From an uncultured Bacillales bacterium (lineage in GTDB: Bacteria > Bacillota_I > Bacilli_A > RFN20 > CAG-826): a stretch of 64,000 bases of DNA. The position numbers and the translations under genes were made by a program. This document shows positions 2,058 through 41,219 of the stretch, piece by piece. Positions within the stretch are counted from its first letter, which is position 1. Each line of letters begins with the position of its first letter. Under the pieces are notes generated by a model that was not told the origin of the DNA, ran no database searches, and saw only the letters and a list, made by a program, of their open reading frames with translations. Location: positions 188,642 to 252,641 of the forward strand of contig CAMJWS010000002.1 of assembly GCA_946409515.1 (NCBI GenBank), written 5' to 3'.

Positions 2058-3857
2058 ATGAAAGTACAACAACATGATGGTTCCATTATTGAAATGGAAA
2101 AAACAAGTGCAGAAGCATTAGAAGTATTAAACCATTCTACTTCTCACTTATTAGCGCAAGCTATTACTGAACTTTATCCAAAAGCCTTATTTGGTTTTGG
2201 ACCTGCCATTGAAAATGGCTTCTACTACGATATCGATTTCGGTGAAGATGTAATTACCGAAAACGATCTTCCTGCTATTGAAAAGAAAATGAGAGAATTA
2301 GCAGGAAAAGATTTAAGAATTGTTCGTGAAGAACTCTCTAAAGAGCAAGCTCTTGAACTCTTTAAGAACAATCCTTACAAAGTTGAATTAATCAAGGAGA
2401 TTAATGAAAGCATCACTACATTCAAACAAGGTGACTTTATAGATCTCTGCCGTGGACCACATATTATGTCCACAGGACTCATTAAACATTTTAAACTACT
2501 TTCTTTAGCAGGTGCCTACTGGAGAGGTAATAGTAAAAATAAACAATTAACAAGAATCTATGGTACCTCTTGGTATACCGCGGAAGATTTAAATAAATGG
2601 CTCGAAGTTCTTGAAGAAAGAAAGAGAAGAGACCACCGTATCTTAGGCAAACAATTAGGCATCTTCATGTATGATGACCTCGTTGGTAAAGGCTTACCAA
2701 TGTGGTTACCAAATGGTTTCTTAGTGAGACGTTTATTAAGTGACTATATCATGGATAAAGAAATAGCCTTAGGCTATAAACACGTCTTAACTCCATGTTT
2801 AGGCAACGTTGAATTATATAAGACATCTGGCCACTGGGCCCACTACCAAAAGGATATGTTCCCAAAGATGGATGTTGATAATGAATCATATGTCCTAAGA
2901 CCAATGAACTGCCCACATCACATGGTCATGTATAGAAGTGCTTTGCACTCTTATCGTGAATTACCATTAAAGATTGCGGAAATCGCAGCTGACTTCCGTT
3001 TTGAAGCCTCTGGTGCATTAACTGGTATTGAAAGAACAAGAGCGTTCTATCAAAACGACTCCCACATCTTCTGTATGCCATCTCAAATCGGTGATGTCTT
3101 CAAAGAAGTTACAAAGCTCATTCTTGATGTCTATCATGACTTTGGTTTCCAAAACTATGCATTCCGTTTATCCTTAAGAGATCCTAACGATACCGAAAAA
3201 TATTTCGGTAATGATGAGCTCTGGGAAAAGAGTGAAAACCAATTACGTGAAGTTTTAAAAGAATTAGGTGTTGAATATTATGAAGCCATTGGTGAAGCCG
3301 CTTTCTATGGTCCTAAACTTGACGTTCAAGTTAAAAGCGCTATTGGTCATGATGTCACATTATCCACTATTCAATTAGACTATCAATTACCAGAAAGATT
3401 TGAACTTACCTATATTGATGAAAAAGGTGAGAAAGCTAGACCAGTTGTTGTTCATAGAGCGATCTTAGGTTCTTTAGATCGTTTCATCGCCTTCTTAATC
3501 GAAGAAACAAAAGGTGCTTTCCCAACATGGTTAGCCCCAGTTCAAGTTAACCTATTACCAGTTAACAATGATTACCATTTAGAATACGCTAACGAATTAT
3601 TAGCGAAGTTCAAAGAACATGGTCTTAGAGTGACTCTCGATGATTCTAATGACAAGCTTGGTTATAGAATGAGAAGTTCACAAATGAAGAAGATTCCATA
3701 CACTCTTGTTCTTGGTGATCATGAACGTGATGATAGAACAGTGACTTATAGAAGATTCGGTGTTCAAGAACAAATCACTGTCAGCATTGATGAATTCTTA
3801 AAACTCATTGATGATGAAATCAAAAATAAAGCATTACTCAATACTGAAAACAAATAA
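2058..3857 (+). CDS. thrS: Threonine--tRNA ligase (short N-terminus)
   Basis: HSTSHLLA, DLCRGPH, RDHR, RPMNCPHH, GEAAFYGPK, HRAILGS. Confidence 0.98.
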   Translation: MKVQQHDGSIIEMEKTSAEALEVLNHSTSHLLAQAITELYPKALFGFGPAIENGFYYDIDFGEDVITENDLPAIEKKMRELAGKDLRIVREELSKEQALELFKNNPYKVELIKEINESITTFKQGDFIDLCRGPHIMSTGLIKHFKLLSLAGAYWRGNSKNKQLTRIYGTSWYTAEDLNKWLEVLEERKRRDHRILGKQLGIFMYDDLVGKGLPMWLPNGFLVRRLLSDYIMDKEIALGYKHVLTPCLGNVELYKTSGHWAHYQKDMFPKMDVDNESYVLRPMNCPHHMVMYRSALHSYRELPLKIAEIAADFRFEASGALTGIERTRAFYQNDSHIFCMPSQIGDVFKEVTKLILDVYHDFGFQNYAFRLSLRDPNDTEKYFGNDELWEKSENQLREVLKELGVEYYEAIGEAAFYGPKLDVQVKSAIGHDVTLSTIQLDYQLPERFELTYIDEKGEKARPVVVHRAILGSLDRFIAFLIEETKGAFPTWLAPVQVNLLPVNNDYHLEYANELLAKFKEHGLRVTLDDSNDKLGYRMRSSQMKKIPYTLVLGDHERDDRTVTYRRFGVQEQITVSIDEFLKLIDDEIKNKALLNTENK

Positions 3858-23956: not shown

Positions 23957-24472
23957 TTAGTCATATAAGACTTCATAATCTGGTAAGGCTTTCCATTCAT
24001 CTGATGCTTGAACGGTATCAATGATTAGATAGACAAGTTCTACGAACTTCTTACCTTTACTTGATAAGGTTTTTTCATCTGCCCCTACACCGATTGGGAA
24101 GTCTTTGACTTCGATTATCTTATCATCGATGGCTAGGTAATAATCAATGTTAGGATTACTTGCAATGTGATGTTTTGTGGCAAATGGATCAAAATTTCTC
24201 GCGTAGGAATAAGGATTCATTTTTTTAACTTTGTTATATATTTCTTCTAGATTTGGTAATTGGTAGGTTGTGATATATTCTTCAGGCTTTCTTTCTCTGA
24301 CTTTATTAGTTTTAACTACTTTGCCAGTCTTACTATCATAAGAAGAATCAAGTTGAACACCCCAGTTTAATCTAAAAGAAAACTCTTCGTATGGAGTGTC
24401 ATATGGTTTAGCTGAATCGCAACTAGTTAACGCGATAGCAATTAATGGTAAGAATAATAAAGACTTTTTCAT
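23957..24472 (-). CDS. Hypothetical lipoprotein
   Basis: MKKSLLFLPLIAIALTSC lipobox. Confidence 0.8.
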   Translation of the reverse strand: MKKSLLFLPLIAIALTSCDSAKPYDTPYEEFSFRLNWGVQLDSSYDSKTGKVVKTNKVRERKPEEYITTYQLPNLEEIYNKVKKMNPYSYARNFDPFATKHHIASNPNIDYYLAIDDKIIEVKDFPIGVGADEKTLSSKGKKFVELVYLIIDTVQASDEWKALPDYEVLYD

Positions 24473-24518
24473 AGATATTGGCCCTCACTAATTTAGACGA
24501 ATTAGTAAGAGAAAACTG

Positions 24519-25403
24519 CTAATCGTTTTCTGTAGCCGCTTTAATGTGGTCAATAAAAGCTTCATCTAATAAGGATAAAGGTTTGTTCTTAAGCCAGACG
24601 AAGAGATATTCGACATATCTTTCTGGGTTAACAATCTCTTTAGCCACGAGTTGTTCGTTTAAGATATATGAGGTTTTTGGGAATAAAGAAATACCAATAT
24701 TACGTCCCGCGAGAGCGGCAACATCTAAGTAGTTATCCATACGGCAAACAATATGCGGCTCAGCGTGTATTTCTTTAAACCACTTTGTAATCATTCTATT
24801 CATTGATTCTCTAGATGGGATAATTAATGGTTTATCTTTTAACATTGATAAATCAATTGTGTTTCCAGGAAGGGCGGCTAATGGGTTATCTTTGCTCATA
24901 AAAGCAGTCATCTTTTCTTGTCCTACTTTAAAGCTGTTTAATAATGTGTTATCACATGGAGAAGTAATGACCGCCATATCGATAAGACCACTTCTAAGTT
25001 TAGCGATTAATTCATCACTATTACCATCCACGACTGAGAACTCCACATTCTTATAGTTATCGAGGAATGTTTCAATCCATTCCGCAGCAATAATAGGAGC
25101 GGAACCTTCCACTAAACCGATAGCGATTTTACCACGCATACCCTTATTCATTGCTCTTATTTCTTCACTAGTTTTATTAACTAAAGATAAGATCTCTTTA
25201 GCGTGTCTATATAATAGTTTTCCAGATTCTGTTAATTGAAGGTGTCTTTTACCTCTAATAAATAATGTTGTATCAAGTTCTTCTTCTAAGGCTTTCATTT
25301 GACTGCTTAAAGGAGGTTGACTCATACACAATTTTTCAGCGGCTTTAGTGATGTTTAGTTCTTCGGCGATAACGACGAAATAAGATAAAGTACGGACATC
25401 CAT
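24519..25403 (-). CDS. LysR-family transcriptional regulator
   Basis: MDVRTLSYFVVIAEELNITKAAEKLCMSQPPLSSQMKALEEEL HTH; divergent from purA. Confidence 0.95.
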   Translation of the reverse strand: MDVRTLSYFVVIAEELNITKAAEKLCMSQPPLSSQMKALEEELDTTLFIRGKRHLQLTESGKLLYRHAKEILSLVNKTSEEIRAMNKGMRGKIAIGLVEGSAPIIAAEWIETFLDNYKNVEFSVVDGNSDELIAKLRSGLIDMAVITSPCDNTLLNSFKVGQEKMTAFMSKDNPLAALPGNTIDLSMLKDKPLIIPSRESMNRMITKWFKEIHAEPHIVCRMDNYLDVAALAGRNIGISLFPKTSYILNEQLVAKEIVNPERYVEYLFVWLKNKPLSLLDEAFIDHIKAATEND

Positions 25404-25418
25404 AACAATATTTCCCCT

Positions 25419-25439
25419 ATCATACATAAAACGTATGAT
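25419..25439. promoter_or_regulatory. LysR-type operator palindrome, copy 1
   Basis: ATCATAC-ATAAAAC-GTATGAT (T-N11-A core); -10 TAAAAT at 25483-25488. Confidence 0.8.
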
Positions 25440-25583
25440 TACTCTAATATTATACGTATTGGTTTTTAAATAAACAAACAATTAAAATTGCGGTGTTAGT
25501 TGAATGTATCGGTTATACCGAAAGCGATTAAGCAATTGGATGTTTAATTGTTTCTGAAACATTCAAAAGGAAAAGAAATACAT

Positions 25584-26858
25584 ATGAAAAATAGCGCAAT
25601 TGTGGGCATTAACTGGGGCGATGAAGGTAAGGGTCGTATTGTCGACTTATTATGTGGCTCCTATGATTTTGTGGTTCGTTATCAAGGTGGCGGTAATGCT
25701 GGTCATACAGTTGTTATCGAGCAAGGTAAGTTTGCTTTACACCTCATTCCTTCTGGTATTTTCCATAAGGGTGTAATCAATATCTTAGGTAACGGTGTCG
25801 CTGTTGATCCAGAAAGCTTATATGAAGAAATTGAGATGTTACGAAATAGAGGCATTGATGTTGGTCCGCATAATCTAAAGATTAGTGATCGAGCTTCTAT
25901 TCTTTTTCCATGGCATAAAATGCTTGATGCCTTAGAAGAAGAAAGACTTAAAGATAAAAAATATGGTTCCACCAAACAAGGTATTGCTCCTTTCTATAGT
26001 GATAAATATCAAAAGAAGACTGTTTTATTAGGAGAACTTCTTTATAACAAGAATTTAAAAGAACATGTTAAAGATATCCTTGAATGGAAGAACTTAACAT
26101 TAAGCGGTGTTTATAAAGTGGAGCCTCTTACTTTTGAATTTATATCTAAATGGATTGAAGAATATAAAGAGAAATTAGCTCCTTATATCTGTGATACCGG
26201 TAAACTTCTTAAACAAGCTGAAAAAGAAGGTAAGAGTGTTTTATTTGAAGCACAACTTGGTTCATTACGTGACTTAGATTATGGTATCTATCCATACACT
26301 ACTTCCTCTAATACCTTAGCCTCATATATTCCTTTAGGTTCTGGTTTAGCAAGTGTCAAGATTGATGAAATCATCGGTATTGTTAAAGCCTATAGCACTT
26401 GTGTTGGTGAAGGACCGTTTGTTAGTGAATGGTTTGGTCCTGATGCTGAAAAACTTAGAGAAGTTGGTATGGAATATGGTGCGAAGACTGGTCGACCAAG
26501 AAGAGTGGGCCCTATTGATATTGTCGCTACGCGTTATGGTGTGGAAGTACAAAACGCTACTTGTATCGCTTTAACTAAGTTAGATTGCTTGTCCTATATG
26601 GATAAGATTCCTGTTTGTGTTAGATATGAACTTAATGGTAAAGAGATTGATGATTTCCCATTCCCATCACTACTAGATGAATGTAAACCAGTGATTGATT
26701 ATCTTCCTGGTTGGAAAGTTGACGTTTCTAATGTTAGAAAATGGGAAGACTTACCAATAGAAGCAAGAAGATATATTGAATATATTGAAAAAGCCATAGG
26801 CTGTCCGATTAAATATATCTCAGTTGGGCAAGAAAGAAATGCCTATATTAAGAGGTAA
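25584..26858 (+). CDS. purA: Adenylosuccinate synthetase
   Basis: WGDEGKG, QGGGNAGHT, EYGAKTGRPRR, TKLD. Confidence 0.97.
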   Translation: MKNSAIVGINWGDEGKGRIVDLLCGSYDFVVRYQGGGNAGHTVVIEQGKFALHLIPSGIFHKGVINILGNGVAVDPESLYEEIEMLRNRGIDVGPHNLKISDRASILFPWHKMLDALEEERLKDKKYGSTKQGIAPFYSDKYQKKTVLLGELLYNKNLKEHVKDILEWKNLTLSGVYKVEPLTFEFISKWIEEYKEKLAPYICDTGKLLKQAEKEGKSVLFEAQLGSLRDLDYGIYPYTTSSNTLASYIPLGSGLASVKIDEIIGIVKAYSTCVGEGPFVSEWFGPDAEKLREVGMEYGAKTGRPRRVGPIDIVATRYGVEVQNATCIALTKLDCLSYMDKIPVCVRYELNGKEIDDFPFPSLLDECKPVIDYLPGWKVDVSNVRKWEDLPIEARRYIEYIEKAIGCPIKYISVGQERNAYIKR

Positions 26859-26862
26859 TATT

Positions 26863-28299
26863 ATGCAAAATTACGATAAATATGTTTCACCATTTTCTGA
26901 AAGATATGCCTCAAAAGAGATGCAATACCTTTTCTCATACAATAAGAAGTTCTCCACTTGGAGGAAGCTTTGGCTCGCTTTAGCGGAATCTGAAAAAGAA
27001 TTAGGTTTATCACAAATCACTGATGAGATGATTAAAGAGATGAAAGAACATATATACGATATTAACTATGATGTCGCAAATGATTATGAACTTAAGTTCC
27101 GTCATGATGTGATGGCTCATATCCATGCTTATGGGGAAGAGTGCCCTACTGCGAAAGGCATTATCCATTTAGGCTCCACTAGTTGTTATGTTGGTGATAA
27201 CACTGACATTATCGTTATGAAAGAAGCTTTAGAACTTGTTAAGAAGAAACTAGTTAACGTGATTGATATCTTGGCTAAGTTCGCGAATGAATATAAAGAC
27301 TTACCATGTTTAGGGTATACACACTTTCAAGCTGCTCAACCAACCACTGTTGGTAAAAGAGCCACGTTGTGGTTACAAGACTTCTTAAGTGACTATGACG
27401 ATTTAGAATATGTCTTAGCATCTCTTAAGTTATTAGGTAGTAAGGGCACTACTGGTACACAAGCATCTTTTGTTGAATTATTTAACGATAAAGATGCTCC
27501 TAGTAAGTTAGATAACCTTATCGCTAAGAAGATGGGCTTTGATGGTGTTTATCCTGTTTCTGGACAAACATATTCTAGAAAAGTTGATTGCAGAGTTTAT
27601 AACATCTTGACAGGCATAGCCACTAGTGCGACTAAGATGACTAATGATATTCGTTTATTGCAACACGAAAAAGAAATAGAAGAACCATTTGAATCTAACC
27701 AAGTTGGTAGTTCAGCGATGCCTTATAAGCGTAATCCAATGAGAAGTGAAAGAATTGCATCCTTAGCAAGATATGTCATTTCTAACTCTATGAATCCATA
27801 TATGACAGCCTCTAGTCAATGGCTAGAAAGAACATTAGATGATTCAGCAAATAGAAGAATCACGATTGCGGAAGGTTTCTTAGCCATTGATGGTGTCTTA
27901 GATTTGTGTATTAACGTCACTAATGGCTTAATCGTTAACGAAAAGGTCATCGAAAAGAACTTAAAAGAAGAATTACCTTTTATGATTACAGAAAATATCC
28001 TTATGGATAAAGTCAAAGAAGGTAAGGATAGACAAGAACTTCATGAAGAGATTAGAAGATTATCTATTCAAGCGGGTAATCGCGTGAAAAAAGAAGGTTT
28101 ACCAAATGACTTATTTGATAGACTTTGTGCTTCAGAAAAACTTCATATTTCCAAAGAAGAAAAAGAAGCATATTTTGATGCCCATAAATATACAGGCAGA
28201 GCTAGTGAACAAGTCACCGACTTCTTAACTAATGATGTGAATCCTGTTCTTAAAAAGAACAAAGACTTACTTGGTATTAAAGTAACCATCAATAAATAG
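26863..28299 (+). CDS. purB: Adenylosuccinate lyase
   Basis: [28 protein letters not shown]. Confidence 0.97.
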
Positions 28300-28307
28300 G
28301 AGTTAAT

Positions 28308-32106
<3,799 letters not shown>

Positions 32107-33333
32107 TTAATCTATTCTGCTTTTTATTAACTTTGGAAGTCTACTTGCTTCACTTTTATTTATAGCGCACAAGGCAATACGAAGCGCACTATGGGTGCAG
32201 ATGGCATACACTCCATCTTTATGTAGTTCATTCATTAATCTTTCAGGATCTTTACTAGGAACACAGATGAAGAAGCCTTTTTCATAAGGTAATGTTTCTA
32301 ACCCCACTTCTTTAGCGGCTTCTAAGAACGCGATACTTCTTGCTTCTAGCATTGCGCAGACTGTTTTGATTTCTTCTTCATATGAAGAGATATATTCTTC
32401 ATTAAGCACTAGTTTTTCAATAATACTCATTCCTAGGGTAGAGGCACTTGACCACTTCGCTCGGCATGAAAAGCTACTAACTCTTTTAAAATCTTTGATT
32501 TCTTCTTCATCTTTAGATAAAGCGCATAACGCCCCGATTCTAAGACCATATAATCCAAATGATTTGGAACCAGAGAAGACAAATAACGCTAATGCGTTGT
32601 TTGGGATATCTTTAAACCTAGCGTATCTCTTCTTAATGATATTTGGATCAACGTTATAAAAATCAAAGTAAGCAACATCCATTAAATAGATGAAGTTAGT
32701 ATTAGGATTATTTCTTGCGATATTAATGAGTTTATCATAATCCTTTTCCTTCATGCAGAAACCTGTTGGGTTTTCACATGGGTCATTGATTAAGATTAGT
32801 ATCTTATTCTGGGTATGTTTGAGATTAGTGACTTTATGATTTAAGTCATCAATATCAAAATTACCATCTTTGTCAAAGAGGGAATAAGTCGCACTGTTGA
32901 AGCCCATTTCCACTCCATATGAGAGATAGTTCTCCCACATATGGTTTGGTAATAAGACTGTTTCGCCTTTATCAACATAGTTAGTAAAAGTTAAGTTAAG
33001 CGCGCCACTACCACCTGGGGTGGCTAAACAATCTATAAAAACTTTTTCCTTAACTTCTTCTAAGTATTTGCCAAAGATTGATAAAAGCACTGCTTCAGCA
33101 TATTTAGGAGTACCTGTGGAATTAACATAGGCAAACTTCTCATTAACGTTTAAGTCTTTGATAACAGATTCAACACTTTTGAACTCATACAAAGAACCAT
33201 CCTCATTCTTGAGCATGCCTGTTGTAGCGTTAATAACACTACTATCAAGCTTCTTGGCTTTGACAGCTTCTGAGGCTAAAGCAAGAATATTATTCTTAAG
33301 TTCTTTATGTTCTGCGCTTTTATTGATAAACAT
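32107..33333 (-). CDS. Class I/II PLP aminotransferase (aspartate aminotransferase-like)
   Basis: INATTG, TPGGSGAL, NDPCENPTG, DVAY, SGSKSFGLYGLRIG. Confidence 0.9.
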   Translation of the reverse strand: MFINKSAEHKELKNNILALASEAVKAKKLDSSVINATTGMLKNEDGSLYEFKSVESVIKDLNVNEKFAYVNSTGTPKYAEAVLLSIFGKYLEEVKEKVFIDCLATPGGSGALNLTFTNYVDKGETVLLPNHMWENYLSYGVEMGFNSATYSLFDKDGNFDIDDLNHKVTNLKHTQNKILILINDPCENPTGFCMKEKDYDKLINIARNNPNTNFIYLMDVAYFDFYNVDPNIIKKRYARFKDIPNNALALFVFSGSKSFGLYGLRIGALCALSKDEEEIKDFKRVSSFSCRAKWSSASTLGMSIIEKLVLNEEYISSYEEEIKTVCAMLEARSIAFLEAAKEVGLETLPYEKGFFICVPSKDPERLMNELHKDGVYAICTHSALRIALCAINKSEASRLPKLIKSRID

Positions 33334-33388
33334 AGCTCAATAATAGCGACATAGTTAAAACATATAAAATACTTATATTGTTAGGGTT

Positions 33389-33409
33389 ATCATACGTTTT
33401 AAATATGAT
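33389..33409. promoter_or_regulatory. LysR-type operator palindrome, copy 2
   Basis: ATCATAC-GTTTTAA-ATATGAT, 19/21 identical to the reverse complement of copy 1. Confidence 0.78.
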
Positions 33410-33416
33410 ACTTTTA

Positions 33417-34283
33417 TCAAAAGCGACGACTTTTATTACTATAGAATTCGGTTCTAGTACCTTTTTGCATATTGCAGCGATGACAAAGTGTTTGCAAATT
33501 ATCATATGTTGTTTTGCCACCCTTAGCGATAGGCACTATATGGTCTATTTCAAGATCGCCCGTTCTTCTACCACACTTTCTGCAACGATTGCCATCTCTT
33601 TCGTATATGGCAAACCTTAATCTATTACTAACTTTGCCTCTTTCGACACGACATATTGCATCCCAAATTCCAGTGTCGTTATAAAAATCACCACTTTTGT
33701 TGTTGATTCTTTGTATTAGTTTCATTACATCAGGTGAATAATAAGTTTGGCATTTGCTGTCTCGATGCACTCCATTAATTTTTGTTAATTCCAAGCAAAC
33801 GTAGATTGAAAAAGCAGTTATAGGTTGCTTTGTTTTTTGCTTAAACATTCTCGCCTCTGTCCTAAGTAGTTTCTTTTCATTTGAAAGCAATTCATCCGTA
33901 TCAAATGTTCCAAGTATGCACTTTTCAGCGATTTCTTCCTTGTACTTTTCGTGTAATTCTTTATTTGCTTGAGCGGCTTTAATTGATTTTATTACTTCTT
34001 TTTGAGCATGAGCCAATTGGTATATCAAGTAATCTCTGGTTGATATGGTGTCAAAAAAATTCTCGTTATCGTATGAATGTCTTAAGTCAAACAACTTAAC
34101 AGCGTTAAAACGATAAGCGGCATTAATTTCATCAAGCTGTTTGAGCGATTCGCTATGTTCAATAACAAACTTTCTGTACTTAGCATTTAGAGAGTTGATT
34201 AAAACAGAGAATGCTACTATACCAGCAACAACATGCAAAAGTAATATCAAGAGAATTAGGGTACGAATTTGTTCGGCTGTCAT
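33417..34283 (-). CDS. Membrane-anchored HNH endonuclease
   Basis: N-terminal TM helix; C-terminal RDGNRCRKCG..LEIDHIVPIAKGG..NLQTLCHRCN. Confidence 0.9.
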   Translation of the reverse strand: MTAEQIRTLILLILLLHVVAGIVAFSVLINSLNAKYRKFVIEHSESLKQLDEINAAYRFNAVKLFDLRHSYDNENFFDTISTRDYLIYQLAHAQKEVIKSIKAAQANKELHEKYKEEIAEKCILGTFDTDELLSNEKKLLRTEARMFKQKTKQPITAFSIYVCLELTKINGVHRDSKCQTYYSPDVMKLIQRINNKSGDFYNDTGIWDAICRVERGKVSNRLRFAIYERDGNRCRKCGRRTGDLEIDHIVPIAKGGKTTYDNLQTLCHRCNMQKGTRTEFYSNKSRRF

Positions 34284-34339
34284 ACTCTATTTAGAAGTTT
34301 TAATTGATGGGTTATCATAGAAACGATCTTTTTCTTGTC

Positions 34340-35101
34340 TTATTCATTAATTGTTCCCTTTTTATAGAATTTGAGCTTTCTTGTCATAGAAGCATTGATG
34401 TCCATAATGTCTTTTTCTTGCAAACAAATAACTGTAACTTTTAGTTGTTTGTATGCTTTCATCTTGTAGTTTTTGGATTTAGTATATTCAACGTTACTTT
34501 CGTTGTATCCCCAATATTCGATATAAATATCGTCTGGATCATCGCCATAACCTGGCAAGCAGAAATCTGGATGCAAATCATGGCTTTCGTTTGCATCTAT
34601 TGGTAATTTCTTCTCATAGGCATGTGGAATGTTGTGATCGAATAGCCAGTTATCAATGATAGTTTCAGATTTTGATTTAACGATATGGCCGTCTGTACAG
34701 GTGAACTTGCCTTCATAGGAATCATCTAAAATTGTGATGTCTCTGCAGTTATTGATTTCCACTAATAGCTTTTTATCAGCGTATTTCTTATAGCAAGATG
34801 GGCAGAATAAGAATCCTGGTTTAGTTTCTTTGCCACAGGCAATACACTTCGCCACTCCTTCATATTCCTTTTGTTCTTTCGCTTCTTTTGGTTTAGCAAC
34901 TTCTTTCTTTGGTTCAACATAATCTTTGTTCAAGATTTTGCCTGTTGCCTTATCAACAAATAAACCTTTGTCGTTAACTTCGATTTTGCCTGCTTTTAAT
35001 TCATCTGCGTGTTTACCGCACAATAAATCCTTACGAGCATTACCCATATAAACACGGGTTGGTTGTCCACAAATAGGACAAACTAACTTATTATCTGCCA
35101 T
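34340..35101 (-). CDS. Zinc-finger plus PD-(D/E)xK-like nuclease domain protein
   Basis: CPIC..CGKH and CIAC..CPSC fingers; DGHIVKSKSE..IDNWL..YE..PDF..IYIEYWG. Confidence 0.75.
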   Translation of the reverse strand: MADNKLVCPICGQPTRVYMGNARKDLLCGKHADELKAGKIEVNDKGLFVDKATGKILNKDYVEPKKEVAKPKEAKEQKEYEGVAKCIACGKETKPGFLFCPSCYKKYADKKLLVEINNCRDITILDDSYEGKFTCTDGHIVKSKSETIIDNWLFDHNIPHAYEKKLPIDANESHDLHPDFCLPGYGDDPDDIYIEYWGYNESNVEYTKSKNYKMKAYKQLKVTVICLQEKDIMDINASMTRKLKFYKKGTINE

Positions 35102-35159
35102 ATATAAAACCTCATTTTTCATTGTATCGTGCAGGCAAGCGCGAATGCAACGAAATCAA

Positions 35160-36110
35160 TCAAAGCTCATATCTGTTTTTCGGTTCTTCGTTAATTAGCG
35201 CCATCATTTCTTCGGCAGCCAATTGTTTAATCTCTCTAACAGTATGCAATAGCTTACCTGAACTGGATTTGGCTCCAGGAATATTCAAGACCTTTAATTG
35301 GAAATAGTACTTAATCTTTAAAATGTCCTCTGTCTCAAGGATTATATATTGCGGATTGTTGCTGAATCTGAAGTTCAACAGGCACTTATCTCCAGGAAGC
35401 ACCACTGTGTTTCCTTCGCAAACAACCCAATTGTTATCATGATGAATTCTTTTAATTTCAAACATCGATAGATTTGAATTTTCTAATTCAACAAAAACTT
35501 CGCAAGCATAAATGTCTTTTTCTAATGTATCTGACATGCATAGTTTTTGAACAACATTCTCCACAGTTGGTTCTTTGCGAAGCATGTTATAGGAAAAAAT
35601 TGGTCTCGACTTTTTTATTTCATCTTCTCTTCTATCTTTATCTGATTTCTTAAACGTCCAAGACACGCCAACTAATGTAATTAGACCACCATACACAGCT
35701 GCGATAATTGGGATAACTATTTCTTTAATATTTTCATCAGAAATAATGTAAATTAAATAGATTGTGAAGCCGATTCCGACAATAAAGTCTTGTATCATTC
35801 CAAATTTTTCAATAAAGGACCTTTTGTCTTTAGGAAAAGTAAAAGCGGCACTCAAATTTACGAAAATAATAATCATTGCAGCTCCACCAAAAATGTATTT
35901 GCAAACAATGTTGTCGATAAAACAAGACATGTAGAATAAATCACACAATTCGTAGAAAACTATGAGCTTAATAGTGAACCAATTAGCATGCTTTCTAACT
36001 TTAGGCGTTATTTCTACAGTAGGATTCTTAAAAGCTATGTGTCTCATGTATAAAGGACCTACTAAAAACGCCAAAGCCAATACACTAAACGATATCCAAT
36101 ATCCGATCAT
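35160..36110 (-). CDS. Hypothetical multi-TM protein with C-terminal soluble domain
   Basis: SD AAAGGAG; about 5 hydrophobic helices, then about 160 aa beta-rich region. Confidence 0.75.
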   Translation of the reverse strand: MIGYWISFSVLALAFLVGPLYMRHIAFKNPTVEITPKVRKHANWFTIKLIVFYELCDLFYMSCFIDNIVCKYIFGGAAMIIIFVNLSAAFTFPKDKRSFIEKFGMIQDFIVGIGFTIYLIYIISDENIKEIVIPIIAAVYGGLITLVGVSWTFKKSDKDRREDEIKKSRPIFSYNMLRKEPTVENVVQKLCMSDTLEKDIYACEVFVELENSNLSMFEIKRIHHDNNWVVCEGNTVVLPGDKCLLNFRFSNNPQYIILETEDILKIKYYFQLKVLNIPGAKSSSGKLLHTVREIKQLAAEEMMALINEEPKNRYEL

Positions 36111-36219
36111 TTTGTTATCTCCTTTCTAAAATGTCTTCGACTTAATAGTAAGAAACCATCTAACTTTTCGCAATATAAAACTTGTGACTTTTGGGACTGT
36201 GTATTATATAGTCACAAAT

Positions 36220-36250
36220 AAAAGACCTCAATGCGTTTGCACTGAGGTAT
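36220..36250 (-). terminator. Terminator after glmS
   Basis: Minus strand ACCTCAGTGC-AAAC-GCATTGAGGT-CTTTT. Confidence 0.75.
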
Positions 36251-36254
36251 TTAT

Positions 36255-38033
36255 TTATTCAACGGTAACACTCTTAGCGAGGTTTCTTGGCTTATCAACG
36301 TTAAGTCCTTTAGCGAGGGCTACGTAGTAAGCAAGATAGAACGCAATTGACGCAATAGCGACACTACTTAAGTAATAGGCATAGTCTTCCACCATCATCG
36401 TATCTTCTGAGCGATATAAGCTCTTTGTGGCGATAGTATAGACTTTTGCCCCTCTAGTTTTAACTTCTTCGATATTGCCCCTCATAGATGAAGCGGTATC
36501 TGGGTCAGTAATAAAGACGATAACAGGGATACCTTTTTCAATTAAAGCAATTGGACCATGTTTAAGTTCTCCACCAGGGATAGCTTCACTATGGATATAA
36601 CTGATTTCTTTGAGTTTTAAAGAAGCTTCTAAGGATAAGAAATAGTCAAAACTTCTTCCAAGGAAGAATACTGATTTCTTATCTTTGATTTCTTCAGCGA
36701 CTTTCATGATTAAAGGCTTATAGTGATCTTGGATACCGTGTACGACATCAAGACAGTTTCTTAAGTCTTCAACCACTTGTTTATCATTGCCTAAAGCACC
36801 CGCGAGCATCGCTAGTAAGGTGACTTGGGCCACATATGCTTTAGTGGAGGCCACTGATACTTCAACCCCACTATGGAGGAGAAGAGAATACATACAGTTT
36901 CTATCTAAAGTGGAACCACCAGTATTAGTGATAATTAAGTTCTTTAAGTTATGTTCTTTAACGATTTTCAAACAGTGAATCAAGTCAGCGGTTTCACCGG
37001 ACTGAGAAATCATAATAATAAATGGTTTAGCCCCTGGATAAGTTGGATGGAAAGCCCATTCAGAAGCGATGAATCTACTTGTAGATTTGTTATATTTTTC
37101 TAAATAACGCCCACCGACTAGACCAGCGTGATAAGAAGTACCACAAGCAATAAAGATGATATGGTCAGATTCTTCTAAATCTTTTAATAAGTTTTTATCA
37201 AATTGATATTTACCTTTTTGGAAATAGGTATTGATTAATCTATTAACGGTTTGGGGTATCTCCTCTATCTCTTTGAGCATATAGTGAGGATAACCTTTTA
37301 AGTCATGAGAGATTAGTTCAACATCCTTATGGATAGCTTGTTTATCAATTGGTTTACCCGCTTTATTAAAGATGGCGACTTTATCATTAGTGATATAGCC
37401 AAATTCTTTATCTTCAAGTTCGATAAACTCATTAGTGTATTCAATCATTGGGGAAGCATCAGAGGCCACGAGATTAAATCCTTTACCAAGGCCCACCACT
37501 AATGGGGAGGCGTTTTTTAAGACGTATAGAGTGTCTTTTATATCATCGGTGAAGAATGTTATAGCGTAACTACCTTTGATCTCTGACATGACCTTTTTGA
37601 TAGTTTCAATGATGTCACCATATTCTAAGTAATAGTATTCAAGTAAATTAGCGACGACTTCTGAGTCAGTTTCACCATAAAAACTATAGTTCTTACCTAA
37701 GAGGAACTTTTTAAGTTCAACATAGTTTTCAATGACCCCATTATGCACTAAGCAGATACGTTGATTGAAAGAGATATGAGGATGGGTATTAAGTTTTGTA
37801 GGAGAACCATGAGTGGCCCAACGAGTATGACCAATCATGATATTGGTTTTGATTTCTTCTGGAACGATTGTTAATAAGTGTTCCACACTACCAACATCTT
37901 TATAGATCTTAATGCCACTATTAAAGTAGGCCACACCTGCGGAATCATATCCGCGGTAATCTAACATTTTTAAGCCTTTAAAGACATACTCTTTTGGACT
38001 AATTAAGCCCACTGCACCAACAATACCGCACAT
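36255..38033 (-). CDS. glmS: Glutamine--fructose-6-phosphate aminotransferase
   Basis: MCGIVG, YRGYDSAG, GHTRWATHG, SQSGET, PRNLAKSVTVE. Confidence 0.98.
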   Translation of the reverse strand: MCGIVGAVGLISPKEYVFKGLKMLDYRGYDSAGVAYFNSGIKIYKDVGSVEHLLTIVPEEIKTNIMIGHTRWATHGSPTKLNTHPHISFNQRICLVHNGVIENYVELKKFLLGKNYSFYGETDSEVVANLLEYYYLEYGDIIETIKKVMSEIKGSYAITFFTDDIKDTLYVLKNASPLVVGLGKGFNLVASDASPMIEYTNEFIELEDKEFGYITNDKVAIFNKAGKPIDKQAIHKDVELISHDLKGYPHYMLKEIEEIPQTVNRLINTYFQKGKYQFDKNLLKDLEESDHIIFIACGTSYHAGLVGGRYLEKYNKSTSRFIASEWAFHPTYPGAKPFIIMISQSGETADLIHCLKIVKEHNLKNLIITNTGGSTLDRNCMYSLLLHSGVEVSVASTKAYVAQVTLLAMLAGALGNDKQVVEDLRNCLDVVHGIQDHYKPLIMKVAEEIKDKKSVFFLGRSFDYFLSLEASLKLKEISYIHSEAIPGGELKHGPIALIEKGIPVIVFITDPDTASSMRGNIEEVKTRGAKVYTIATKSLYRSEDTMMVEDYAYYLSSVAIASIAFYLAYYVALAKGLNVDKPRNLAKSVTVE

Positions 38034-38037
38034 TTAC

Positions 38038-39372
38038 TTATCTACCTAAATATTTCTTTAATTCGAATTCACTAACAGTGGTATGGTATTCTTTCCATTC
38101 CTTTTCTTTAGCTTCGATATATTTTGGGAACAAGTGTGTTCCTAAAACTTCTTTTAAGATACTACTATTTTTGAAGTCTTCAATAGCAGCGTGTAAAGTT
38201 TCTGGTAAACAGACGATCTTTCTTTCTTTAATTTCATCATCTGTTAAGTCAAATAAGTTATCTTTCACTGGTGGGATGATATCTGCATCCTTAGTGTTTT
38301 TGATACCTTCTAAACCACAGGCAAGGATACCCGCGAGAGCAAGGTATGGGTTTGCACATGGGTCAACGTTTCTAAATTCTGTTCTAGTAGCCGCACCACG
38401 AGCCGCTGGGATTCTGACTAATGAACTTCTATTAGCGTCACTCCAACAAGCATAGATTGGGGCTTCATAACCACTGACTAATCTCTTATAAGAGTTAACG
38501 ATTGGGTTTGTTAATAAGCTTAATTCTCTAGCGTGACTAAGAACACCTGTAATCCATTTTTCACACATTGTGCTTAATTCCATTGGTGCTTTTGGATCAT
38601 AGAATAAGTCACCTTTTTCTTTGGTGAATAAGGAACAGTTAGTGTGCATGCCATTACCTGCTTGTTTATTAAGTGGTTTTGGCATGAAACTTGCTAAGTA
38701 GCCGTTCTTTCTTGCAATCATCTTAACGACTTGTTTGAAAGTTTGGACTCTATCGCACGCTGATACAACATCTGTATATTTGAAAGTGATTTCATTTTGG
38801 CCTGGGCCAACTTCGTGGTGAGAGGCTTGGACTTCAAAGCCCATCTTTTCTAACATGAGGGCGATTTCTCTTCTCACATCTTCACCACCATCGAATGGGG
38901 ATAAATCAAAGTAACCCGCTCTATCGCTGCAGTTAGTGGAAACACTACCATCAGCGTTTAATTTGAAGAGATAGAATTCTGGTTCGAAACCAACATACAT
39001 GGTTTCAATACCTAAATCATTCATCTTCTTGACTTCTTTTTTAAGAATATAACGTGGATCACCAATGAATGGTGTGCCATCTGGCATATAGACATCACAG
39101 ATGAATCTAGCAACGCCACCGATAGCGCTATCTTCAAATGGTAAGACTAAGAATGTATCTAGATCTGGATGAAGGTACATATCAGCTTCTTTAATTCTGA
39201 CAAAGCCTTCAATAGATGAACCATCAAACATAATCTTATTGTTTAAAGCATCATCGATTCTATTAACTGGGATTTCCACCGCTTTGATATCACCTAACAT
39301 ATCTGTGAATTGCATTCTGATATAGGAGATATCGTTTTCTTTAATGATTTTTTTGATTTCTTCCTTATTCAT
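38038..39372 (-). CDS. glnA: Glutamine synthetase type I
   Basis: FDGSSI, EPEF, HHEVGPGQNE, FMPKP, GNGMH, NSYKRL. Confidence 0.98.
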   Translation of the reverse strand: MNKEEIKKIIKENDISYIRMQFTDMLGDIKAVEIPVNRIDDALNNKIMFDGSSIEGFVRIKEADMYLHPDLDTFLVLPFEDSAIGGVARFICDVYMPDGTPFIGDPRYILKKEVKKMNDLGIETMYVGFEPEFYLFKLNADGSVSTNCSDRAGYFDLSPFDGGEDVRREIALMLEKMGFEVQASHHEVGPGQNEITFKYTDVVSACDRVQTFKQVVKMIARKNGYLASFMPKPLNKQAGNGMHTNCSLFTKEKGDLFYDPKAPMELSTMCEKWITGVLSHARELSLLTNPIVNSYKRLVSGYEAPIYACWSDANRSSLVRIPAARGAATRTEFRNVDPCANPYLALAGILACGLEGIKNTKDADIIPPVKDNLFDLTDDEIKERKIVCLPETLHAAIEDFKNSSILKEVLGTHLFPKYIEAKEKEWKEYHTTVSEFELKKYLGR

Positions 39373-39404
39373 AGTATTAAACCTCTTTCAAAAAACATGC
39401 TTAA

Positions 39405-39433
39405 AATCTAATACTACGAAAATATCATGTCAA
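39405..39433 (-). promoter_or_regulatory. SigA-type promoter of glnA-glmS
   Basis: Minus strand TTGACA-17 nt-TAGATT. Confidence 0.65.
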
Positions 39434-39512
39434 TATATTTCTATGTCAATTTTGCTTTACATACATATCTATATATAATATTAACTATGTTAAATAATAA
39501 GGATATATAATA

Positions 39513-39533
39513 ACCATACGATTTACATATGAT
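39513..39533. promoter_or_regulatory. LysR-type operator palindrome, copy 3
   Basis: ACCATAC-GATTTAC-ATATGAT, 18/21 identical to copy 2; upstream of glnA. Confidence 0.65.
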
Positions 39534-39534
39534 A

Positions 39535-39558
39535 AAAAACACCTCTTTCGAGATGTCT
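39535..39558 (-). terminator. Terminator ending the glg-leuS-pncB-GNAT run
   Basis: Minus strand GACATCTC-GAAA-GAGGTGTT-TTTT. Confidence 0.75.
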
Positions 39559-40120
39559 ATTTATCTAAGTAGAGAACCATCAGCTCTTCATCAAGATATT
39601 TGCCGTTTGGTAATCTAAGCACTCTTGGACGATCACCGGTTTTAACAAATCCTTTTGATGTATATAGACGTTTAGCTCTTTCGTTTTCTTTTATGACTTC
39701 TAGTTCTAATTGAGTAACGTTCTTTCTCTTTTTAGCAAGTTTAATCATTTCATCAAAGAGTAAGGAACCAATGCCCATGCCTCTATACTCTTCAGTAATA
39801 GCGATACCGATTCTACCTCTATGTCTAGTTTTGATATTTCCTAAGAAATCTAAGAAGCAGTTACCAACGATTATGTCATTGACATAAACTGCAATTAGAT
39901 AGCTATTATCGTTATCGTTACTACCACTTATAAAGGCTTCTTCTTTAGACATATCATCTAAATACTTTTGATAGTCTTCTGGAAGAGAGGTGATATAGTC
40001 CGTTGTGGTGGAAGTTTTAATAATACTATCTAAGAGTTTTGGTGCATCAGAAATCTCAGGAGACTTAAGAGTCACCTTTAAACCGTTCTTCAATGTAAAT
40101 TCTTTTGCGGCGTAAATCAT
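39557..40120 (-). CDS. GNAT-family N-acetyltransferase
   Basis: EYRGMGIGSLL acetyl-CoA motif; NERAKRLYTSKGF. Confidence 0.92.
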   Translation of the reverse strand: MIYAAKEFTLKNGLKVTLKSPEISDAPKLLDSIIKTSTTTDYITSLPEDYQKYLDDMSKEEAFISGSNDNDNSYLIAVYVNDIIVGNCFLDFLGNIKTRHRGRIGIAITEEYRGMGIGSLLFDEMIKLAKKRKNVTQLELEVIKENERAKRLYTSKGFVKTGDRPRVLRLPNGKYLDEELMVLYLDK

Positions 40121-40121
40121 A

Positions 40122-41219
40122 CTAGTAAATTGGATAAGGAACTTTCTTTAATTTGTCGTTTCTATAGTTAGCGCGACCTTCTTTAGCTTGAGGTTGACCG
40201 TCAAGCATGACGAGGTCACCTGTAAAACCACAGGTCATATTGTTAACAAATGATGTACCTACACCATACATAGTAACAGGAACACCTAATTTCTTCCATT
40301 CTCTAATCTTTTCTGCGTTGAAAGAAGAAGAAACTGTAATACCGACATAATTGAATCCATTATCATCTAAGGCTTTTCTTAAAGCGATGATAAGTTCTTT
40401 ACAAACACCATGAGGATCAAAACCACTTGTGTCTTTATCATCAAAGTAATGATCGATAAGGGCTTTAGATGTATCCACTCTCACGCCTCTTAACTTATGA
40501 CCTAAGTGTTTAGCGATAATTAAAGTATCTCTAACTACGTTATTATGATAGTCAATAAGAGCTGTGACTTGTTCATCTGGGAAACTCTTTAAATAGCAAT
40601 CAGCGGCTTTACAGATATCACCACCACAAATTTGGATTAAAGCATGAGGCATTGTGCCCATACCTTTACCACCCCACCATAAGCCTTGAGCATCAGTGCT
40701 AACTCTATTAATACCAGCGACATAGGTGGCATAACCATCACCGACTTGGGTGAGGTAATCATCTTGACGATCCGCCATGGAGAAGACTGGTGTATCACCT
40801 GCGGCATCAAGCACTTCTTTAACGTTAGTGGCTACACTACTTCTACGTGCAAGGACACCATCAATAACGGACTCTAAAAAGCCGAAATTTTCATAAGTAC
40901 CAGTCACTTTTAAAACTGGTTCATTAGCCTGGATAATATCCCCGTCATTTAAGGCTTCAATCAATAATTCTTCTGGATGAACAGCGAAAGTATGAAGAAT
41001 CGCGATTGCTTCATCAATGCCACACAACATGCTGTTATCTCTTCTTTGGAACCACTGCATTGTGACAATATGTCCTTGAAGGTTTTCACTAACAATCTTA
41101 CGGCTCTTTAAAAAGTAATTCGCACTGTAGAAGCCTTCACCTAATTCTTTTGGAAAATTAAATGTTTTGTTTGTAATACGGGAGATCTTTCCCGCTTTCT
41201 TTAATTCTACTTCCATCAT
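40122..41219 (-). CDS. pncB: Nicotinate phosphoribosyltransferase
   Basis: YSANYF, DGYA, GTMPHALI, LIDYHNN, GVRVDTS. Confidence 0.85.
   Translation of the reverse strand: MMEVELKKAGKISRITNKTFNFPKELGEGFYSANYFLKSRKIVSENLQGHIVTMQWFQRRDNSMLCGIDEAIAILHTFAVHPEELLIEALNDGDIIQANEPVLKVTGTYENFGFLESVIDGVLARRSSVATNVKEVLDAAGDTPVFSMADRQDDYLTQVGDGYATYVAGINRVSTDAQGLWWGGKGMGTMPHALIQICGGDICKAADCYLKSFPDEQVTALIDYHNNVVRDTLIIAKHLGHKLRGVRVDTSKALIDHYFDDKDTSGFDPHGVCKELIIALRKALDDNGFNYVGITVSSSFNAEKIREWKKLGVPVTMYGVGTSFVNNMTCGFTGDLVMLDGQPQAKEGRANYRNDKLKKVPYPIY

Follow-up and report, generated by a model that had tools for sequence, protein, structure and literature searches.

A LysR-type regulator and its conserved operator: a probable nitrogen regulon in an uncultured Bacillales bacterium and other gut anaerobes

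INTRODUCTION

We analyzed a DNA stretch of 64,000 nt from an uncultured Bacillales bacterium (assembly GCA_946409515.1, contig CAMJWS010000002.1, positions 188,642 to 252,641; hereafter, the window), in which a gene for a LysR-type regulator (lysR) lies divergent from purA. An earlier sequence-only reading had noticed three copies of a 21-bp palindrome, one beside lysR, one upstream of an aminotransferase gene and one upstream of glnA, and had proposed that one LysR protein coordinates amino-donor genes. Our comparisons suggest that LysR and this operator probably regulate glutamine-making and nitrogen-donating genes, both here and in other gut anaerobes. This proposal is supported by an operator that the units share, by the nitrogen-related partners of lysR at other loci, by operator sites unlinked to lysR and by conservation within the genus.

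RESULTS

Three operator copies in one genome

The window is part of a genome of 1,323,416 bp in 16 contigs with ~36% G+C and 91.75% completeness (coded G000 in the genus comparison). Copy 1 of the palindrome reads ATCATACATAAAACGTATGAT. Copy 2 is identical to its reverse complement at 19 of 21 positions, and copy 3 is identical to copy 2 at 18 of 21; the 21 bp adjoining the palindrome (box 1) match at 16 of 21 positions between copies 1 and 2. These values, all taken from the sequence-only reading, were reproduced when we recomputed them, as was the distance of exactly 54 bp from the center of box 1 to a –10 hexamer at copy 1 (TAAAAT, forward strand) and at copy 2 (TATTAT, reverse strand). Coordinates are given in Table 1.

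The pattern ATCATA-N9-TATGAT had exactly two matches in the 1,323,416-bp genome, namely copies 1 and 2, and 15 matches when up to one mismatch was allowed, copy 3 included. Our first matrices (21 and 44 bp) were trained solely on nine non-redundant sites from other genomes of the genus. With the 21-bp matrix, copies 1 and 3 took ranks 1 and 2 in the genome, and copy 2 scored 18.8, inside the range of the maxima of shuffled sequences (16.6–19.8). The 44-bp matrix, which also covers the adjoining box 2, gave 48.4 for copy 1 and 36.3 for copy 2 (45.2 in the genus-wide comparison), with the next site at 5.5 and a maximum of 10.2 in five shuffles; copy 3, which consists of box 1 alone, scored –1.7. 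We also computed a broader box-1 matrix from 65 distinct sites, all from other genomes, and found copy 1 (28.2 bits), copy 3 and copy 2 (25.5 bits) at the first, second and third genome ranks, compared with 21.9 bits for the fourth match and a maximum of 22.2 bits in 10 first-order Markov genomes. These results confirmed that the three palindromes are real and far from chance; the motif is top-ranked at the three copies and kept as a module across relatives, and its distribution is not random.

Operator and partner genes at other lysR loci

When a species-level genome collection was searched with a profile of the LysR orthologs, 178 relatives emerged, and the best 80 of the 178 loci (58–98% identity) were analyzed. 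Their records are labeled Bacilli, Erysipelotrichaceae, Acholeplasmatales, Lachnospiraceae, Oscillospiraceae, other Clostridia, and Spirochaetales/Sphaerochaetaceae/Treponema. Among the 78 loci with sequence upstream of lysR, 72 carried a module of ~44 bp, composed of box 1 (ATCATAC-N7-GTATGAT) and box 2, that exceeded 25 bits and lay within 200 nt of lysR. Weaker variants stood beside the gene in L052 (18.5 bits) and L053 (12.3 bits), the module of L090 was 313 nt upstream of lysR, and no module was found within 200 nt of lysR in L026, L058 and L067.

We assigned partner genes by Pfam searches on representatives and by tblastn mapping in all loci, and tallied them for the 79 loci whose LysR is nearly full-length (L065, with a partial LysR, was excluded). 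A nitrogen-assimilation or amino-donor partner was present in 74 of the 79 scorable loci, a count that includes close kin: glutamine synthetase (GS) type III (GSIII, 21/79), PyrG (15/79), AsnB (14/79), a class I aminotransferase (8/79), an Amt-PII fusion (7/79), GdhA (3/79), PurC (2/79), GlnA, downstream of lysR (2/79), GlmS (1/79) and PurA (1/79). The partner was absent or not recognized in 5/79. The second genes of the partner operons came from the same set (purA, pyrG, guaA, GSIII, glnA, asnB and purB). The ammonium transporter beside lysR in L015 (positions 1155–2873) and in six other loci is a single frame of 572 aa with Ammonium_transp and P-II domains, and is therefore an Amt-PII fusion. 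In a LysR tree rooted at the midpoint only, for which we claim no direction of transfer, the partner label changed at least 20 times (minimum possible, 10; shuffled mean, 52), and a Spirochaetota clade of 19 rows was nested among Bacillota rows.

The 80 loci, 494,742 bp in total, contain 90 box-1 sites of at least 14 bits, compared with 1–3 in shuffled sequences; 73 were within 250 nt of lysR and 17 were elsewhere. Two of these 17 distant sites lie inside genes and were taken as chance. The other 15 are intergenic: eight precede pyrG, four precede purA (behind amt-PII), two are full modules before glnA and one is beside GSIII. Box 2 is also kept at operators that have no adjoining lysR. A search of five spirochaete genomes for the box-1 pattern, allowing at most one mismatch, gave 10 sites, compared with none for the reversed control. 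Five of them are lysR sites, and a sixth is a full module of 61 bits that precedes asnB in a spirochaete where asnB is unlinked to lysR and the partner of lysR is pyrG. The other four of the five sites away from lysR, with at most 16 bits and no nitrogen gene nearby, were treated as chance.

Promoter geometry and proposed mechanism

In 42 of 68 distinct aligned sequences, a –10-like hexamer (at least 5/6 identical to TATAAT) begins 54 bp away from the center of box 1, and the count rises to 49 of 68 when ±1 bp is allowed. The conserved end of box 2 is the TTG of the weak target –35 element, and box 1 lies mostly 14–20 nt before the lysR start codon. Read on the reverse strand, the module contains TTGAAA-17-TATAAT with its –10 inside box 2, so that its sequence has a divergent-promoter architecture. 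For LysR-type regulators, PMC11495319 describes a regulatory site of high symmetry, activation sites that are weaker and cover the –35 element, and a promoter that works in both directions and gives autorepression; the BenM logo is given there as ATAC-N7-GTAT. The module has the same arrangement of sites when positions are counted from predicted starts: a T-N11-A palindrome, here within ATAC-N7-GTAT, near –65 and putative activation sites reaching to –35.

In the proposed mechanism, box 1 would be centered ~66 bp upstream of the target start and box 2 would reach the target –35, and LysR would activate its targets by the usual sliding-dimer mode. The targets in this genome would be purA-purB-guaA-pyrG-DUF1275, the AspC-like aminotransferase gene and glnA-glmS. 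Transcription of lysR would begin where box 1 meets box 2. Because the lysR –10 would lie inside box 2 and box 1 in the lysR leader, LysR may be expected to repress its own gene. Copy 3, if it acts at all, could repress the distal promoter or act at a distance. Because the same regulator–operator pair is attached to amt-PII, type I GS (GSI), GSIII, gdhA, asnB, aminotransferase genes, pyrG, guaA, purA/B/C and glmS, LysR is probably a nitrogen-status regulator that would set the levels of enzymes fixing ammonia and of enzymes drawing on glutamine or aspartate. Its effector might be 2-oxoglutarate and/or glutamine, a guess by analogy with other nitrogen sensors that we rate at somewhat less than even.

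Textbook regulators and RNA elements

In model Bacilli, GlnR/TnrA, PurR, CodY, the glmS ribozyme and the purine riboswitch control the orthologs of glnA, purA/purB/guaA and glmS. The sequence-only reading had proposed a check for glnR, tnrA and purR. We found no MerR_1 (PF13411, GlnR/TnrA family), PII, CodY or PuR_N domain in the 91.75% complete genome; the same searches detected each family in 2–13 of 14 control genomes, Bacillus subtilis being among them each time. No Rfam family was found in the window at gathering scores, nor over positions 24400–40200 at E values up to 1, and therefore no glmS ribozyme, purine riboswitch or glutamine riboswitch was detected there. A tblastn search of the genome found no Amt, GSIII, AsnB or PurC.

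Conservation within the genus and alternative explanations

LysR orthologs were found in 11 of 22 other genomes of the genus, with 86–98% or 60–62% identity, and in all 12 lysR loci of the genus (G000 included) both boxes adjoin lysR on its upstream side. At the aminotransferase gene, the module stands at –76 from the ATG in four of five genus loci, each with a different upstream neighbor. At glnA, box 1 occurs at ~–160 in five of the eight genus loci in which the gene has its own upstream region; glnA directly follows guaA in G020 and G005, and G019 was excluded from this count because its contig begins inside the gene. At purA, box 1 is found at –163 to –165 in all four close relatives that could be assessed (G000, G015, G012 and G010), the contig of G007 being cut too close to the gene for judging. 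The purA genes of G020 and G005 have sites of 13–14 bits only, and four distant purA genes of the genus (42% identity) have no site.

Several observations weigh against the proposed regulon. The aminotransferase gene of G007 has no module, and glnA has no site in G015, G011 and G007. With a profile search at E ≤ 1e-10, no ortholog of LysR was detected in G006 (94% complete), G021 (80%), G011 and G019, yet G006 and G021 keep box 1 at glnA (24.6 and 21.2 bits, respectively); either lysR is unassembled in these two genomes, or the site is a relic, or it has another binder. Copy 3, which the sequence-only reading had already called less certain, is indeed the weakest site, having no box 2, a distance of 113 bp rather than 54 bp to the strong glnA –10, and the two relatives just mentioned, which keep the site without a detected LysR. 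No operator site accompanies the gdhA-like gene here, so that the earlier phrase 'whole amino-donor network' is too wide for this genome. The fourth-ranked match of the genome (C5:44665, 21.9 bits) is intergenic and precedes a lipoprotein gene, and another intergenic match (C1:56182, 14.7 bits) has a TfoX-like gene on one side and a hypothetical gene on the other; we see no connection with nitrogen for either match and set both aside as chance or unexplained. Many of the 80 loci are close kin and several are near-duplicates, so that the counts overstate independence, and their taxon labels, including the phylum labels Bacillota, Mycoplasmatota and Spirochaetota, are those of the records of metagenome-assembled genomes. 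Absences in a genome that is 91.75% complete are not proven.

We further considered the possibility that LysR controls only itself and the adjoining gene, and that copies 2 and 3 and the distant sites are inert leftovers of promoter-cassette rearrangements. Such leftovers would be in line with the lysR-purA spacer, a chimera that seems to derive from a deletion between two operator copies (see below), as well as with the glnA sites that G006 and G021 keep without a detectable LysR and the non-canonical spacing of copy 3. However, copy 2 is a full module at exactly –76 in four genomes with differing flanks, the distant sites retain the 54-bp geometry and box 2 even though no lysR promoter is needed there, and the three copies outrank all other sites of the genome. 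We accordingly regard this explanation as improbable.

It is still less probable that a different protein binds the palindrome and that lysR lies beside it by coincidence or because that protein regulates lysR as well. Binding by LysR itself is inferred, and another binder would account for the sites in G006 and G021; however, lysR adjoins the site in 72 of 78 loci under three phylum labels, and the palindrome combines the T-N11-A form with the ATAC-N7-GTAT core known from BenM/CatM, whose helix-turn-helix LysR shares. That the element acts as an RNA hairpin in the leaders of lysR or its targets is very improbable. Box 1 is indeed predicted to be transcribed at the start of the lysR leader, but at target promoters it is upstream of –35/–10 and outside the target transcript; furthermore, its arms are seven A/T-rich pairs with conservation in the half-sites, as for a protein site, no Rfam family matches it, and no pairing-preserving compensatory changes of the arms were seen across orthologs. 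Finally, three copies within 15 kb and frequent changes of the lysR partner might suggest a small mobile or repeated promoter element without regulatory meaning, but we give this explanation the least credence of all, as the 1.32-Mb genome holds three copies only, their placement is fixed relative to promoters, and the genes associated with it across the 80 loci belong to a single functional class.

The LysR protein and known regulators

LysR contains the domains PF00126 (HTH_1, 1e-20) and PF03466 (LysR_substrate, 5.8e-35) and belongs to the LysR type. Among the NCBIfam equivalogs, no curated LysR family reached its cutoff with this protein. The best matches were AlsR (171 bits; cutoff, 430) and CidR (162; cutoff, 415), and the scores were 129.7 (cutoff, 350) and 84.1 (cutoff, 300) for the GltC families NF053705 and NF047354, 114.8 (cutoff, 309) for NAC (NF008410), 102.7 (cutoff, 580) for CatM and 77 (cutoff, 600) for BenM. 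The nearest solved relatives are CatM and BenM (E value of 4e-30), and the helix-turn-helix is nearly identical to that of CatM. A search of 5.8 billion proteins returned 951 relatives at E ≤ 1e-60, which are named 'LysR family transcriptional regulator' where they are named; neither there nor in the Protein Atlas did we find more than generic 'LysR family' names, or a cultured carrier. In full-text literature, with subscription journals outside its coverage, we found no description of such a LysR nitrogen regulator and no account of its orthologs, which agrees with the earlier view that the regulon is undescribed. LysR is a classical LysR-type regulator whose subfamily is still unnamed, and its proposed regulon is, as far as could be found, an apparently undescribed application of a classical mechanism.

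GltC of Bacillus and Listeria is a LysR-type activator of a nitrogen-assimilation operon divergent from its own gene, similar to what is proposed here, and it responds to 2-oxoglutarate and glutamate. By the scores given above, GltC is not an ortholog of this LysR. GltC controls one operon, whereas LysR of the type described here has several operators per genome; moreover, in this genome the divergent gene is purA and not a glutamate synthase gene, and at the 80 loci the mapped partners are those listed above, glutamate synthase being outside our tblastn queries. The term 'GltC-like' used in the sequence-only reading is thus appropriate for function only; by descent it fails, with a score of 129.7 against 350 and a DNA-binding domain that resembles those of BenM/CatM.

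NAC of Klebsiella and E. coli is, like this LysR, of the LysR type and controls sigma-70 nitrogen genes. NAC is not known to use a co-effector, is itself under NtrC/sigma-54 and has a mostly catabolic regulon, whereas the regulon proposed here comprises assimilation and amidotransferase genes, and the lysR promoter looks sigma-70-like and self-repressed. NAC is not an ortholog either (114.8 against 309). The 15-bp consensus of Klebsiella NAC, ATA-N9-TAT (bioRxiv 10.1101/2023.07.10.548335), is contained in box 1 (ATAC-N7-GTAT), which is a likeness of sequence only.

BenM and CatM of Acinetobacter, which act in aromatic catabolism, share with LysR the near-identical helix-turn-helix and the core half-sites ATAC-N7-GTAT and, as described in PMC11495319, the common layout of a regulatory site and activation sites at a bidirectional promoter. 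Their effector domain has diverged from that of LysR and their regulon is unrelated. GlnR and TnrA belong to the MerR family, whereas the regulator of the window is LysR-type. Compared with GlnR/TnrA, PurR, CodY, the glmS ribozyme and the purine riboswitch, one protein is proposed here in place of several controls.

Genes, promoters and leaders of the window

The features of the window are summarized in Table 1. For lysR, a longer open reading frame that starts at a TTG and reaches position 25481 was rejected as over-extended; the ATG at 25403, which has an AGGGGA ribosome-binding site, is the true start. The genes of the purA operon are separated by gaps of 1, 8, 17 and –4 nt, and a terminator-like hairpin at 32098–32120 closes the operon. 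Its –10 hexamer aligns with TATAAT of the relative L015. Five RNA runs had small shares, and in four runs short contigs of relatives extended over lysR, purA, purB, guaA and pyrG; we did not use these contigs as transcript evidence because they give neither transcript starts nor levels.

The aminotransferase matched PRK08637 and PRK09257, in both cases below the cutoff. Its –10 hexamer ends 6 nt before the ATG without a ribosome-binding site, and the same layout is found in G012, G015 and G010. Because the –10 is so close to the ATG, this transcript is probably leaderless. The interval 33417–36110, which separates glmS from the aminotransferase module, holds three unrelated genes, which encode an HNH nuclease (a weak match to IscB/Cas9 HNH), a zinc-ribbon protein and a membrane protein. 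Because glmS stands immediately before the module in G015, the three-gene stretch looks like an inserted island.

The genes glnA and glmS form one operon (36255–39372, reverse strand) with a gap of 4 nt, followed by a terminator-like hairpin at 36248–36225. The center of copy 3 is 113 bp upstream of the proximal glnA –10, and the copy falls inside the spacer of a weak promoter-like pair (39535–39507); it is closely preceded by the end of a GNAT gene that carries a terminator of its own. The glnA promoter region (39405–39470) has two TTGACA boxes 16 bp apart followed by TAGATT in all eight genus loci (that of the window and L096–L102), and a short palindrome, TAACATAGTTA, upstream of this promoter is also kept in all eight, including those free of box 1. 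This region and palindrome may together form a second control element of glnA.

The lysR-purA spacer (25404–25583) is a chimera with respect to L015 (positions 880–1175 and 2830–3025): its box 2 matches the lysR|amt-PII module of L015, whereas its box-1 spacer and its entire purA leader correspond to the spacer between amt-PII and purA in that relative. This comparison suggests that a deletion running from one operator copy to another removed amt-PII from the present genome; no Amt or PII is found anywhere in it.

The purA leader is predicted to fold into a three-stem junction. In an alignment of five sequences, 92.9% of the cells of its 20 pairs were paired, and two pairs had a compensatory change. 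It has no Rfam match. A DNA search of 61 family genomes returned G000 itself and one weak partial match, and a covariance model run on 121 relatives found the leader in the five training genomes, apart from one match inside a transporter gene on the opposite strand. Because the model found the leader only in its training genomes, the leader may be a lineage-restricted regulatory RNA, or merely a conserved leader. At another target, pyrG of G005 and G020 (L011 and L012), a leader of ~150 nt with a short open frame lies between the module and the gene, and may be a separate pyrG control.

Table 1. Features of the window around lysR and the three operator copies
Feature	Position	Strand	Description
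lysR	24519..25403	-	294 aa; Pfam HTH_1 and LysR_substrate
Box 1, copy 1	25419..25439	.	Candidate regulatory (high-affinity) site, ATCATAC-N7-GTATGAT; 16 bp upstream of lysR start codon
Box 2, copy 1	25440..25462	.	Putative activation-site region; reverse strand holds TATAAT (25454-25449), predicted lysR –10
Predicted –10, purA operon	25483..25488	+	TAAAAT; 54 bp from box-1 center
purA leader	25493..25583	+	Predicted three-stem junction, closing stem around two hairpins; minimum free energy –22.4 kcal/mol, z –4.39
purA-purB-guaA-pyrG-DUF1275 operon	25584..32106	+	Divergent from lysR
purA	25584..26858	+	NCBIfam equivalog above cutoff
purB	26860..28299	+	NCBIfam equivalog above cutoff
guaA	28308..29840	+	NCBIfam equivalog above cutoff
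pyrG	29858..31462	+	NCBIfam equivalog above cutoff
DUF1275 membrane protein	31459..32106	+	Pfam
AspC-like class I/II aminotransferase	32107..33333	-	408 aa; Pfam Aminotran_1_2
Predicted –10, aminotransferase promoter	33340..33345	-	TATTAT, in TTTATA-17-TATTAT; 6 nt before ATG
Full module, copy 2	33366..33409	-	Box 1 (33389-33409) and box 2 (33366-33388); faces aminotransferase
glmS	36255..38033	-	NCBIfam equivalog above cutoff
glnA	38038..39372	-	Type I glutamine synthetase; NCBIfam equivalog above cutoff
Proximal glnA promoter	39405..39433	-	TTGACA-17-TAGATT; kept in all 8 genus glnA upstream regions
Box 1, copy 3	39513..39533	.	Upstream of glnA; no box 2; 27.1 bits, genome rank 2

DISCUSSION

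The proposed regulation of glutamine-making and nitrogen-donating genes by LysR can be extended to a wider possibility, which we put forward tentatively and rate at slightly less than even. The LysR subfamily could be a master nitrogen regulator of many gut and rumen anaerobes, among them small-genome Bacilli, Erysipelotrichaceae-like lineages, Lachnospiraceae, Oscillospiraceae and rumen spirochaetes. In these organisms, it might replace GlnR/TnrA or NtrBC, move between phyla together with its operator, sense the balance of 2-oxoglutarate and glutamine, and couple ammonium assimilation to the glutamine- and aspartate-using enzymes that make nucleotides, asparagine and amino sugars. To our knowledge, no described nitrogen regulator covers that combination.

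For most gut and rumen anaerobes that have not been cultured, it is not known how nitrogen is sensed, and the textbook regulators derive from a few model phyla. The present analysis provides a candidate regulator, its exact operator, a promoter geometry and a list of targets across phyla. These results suggest that the enzymes making glutamine and aspartate are co-regulated with their biosynthetic consumers, which bears on nitrogen use in the rumen.

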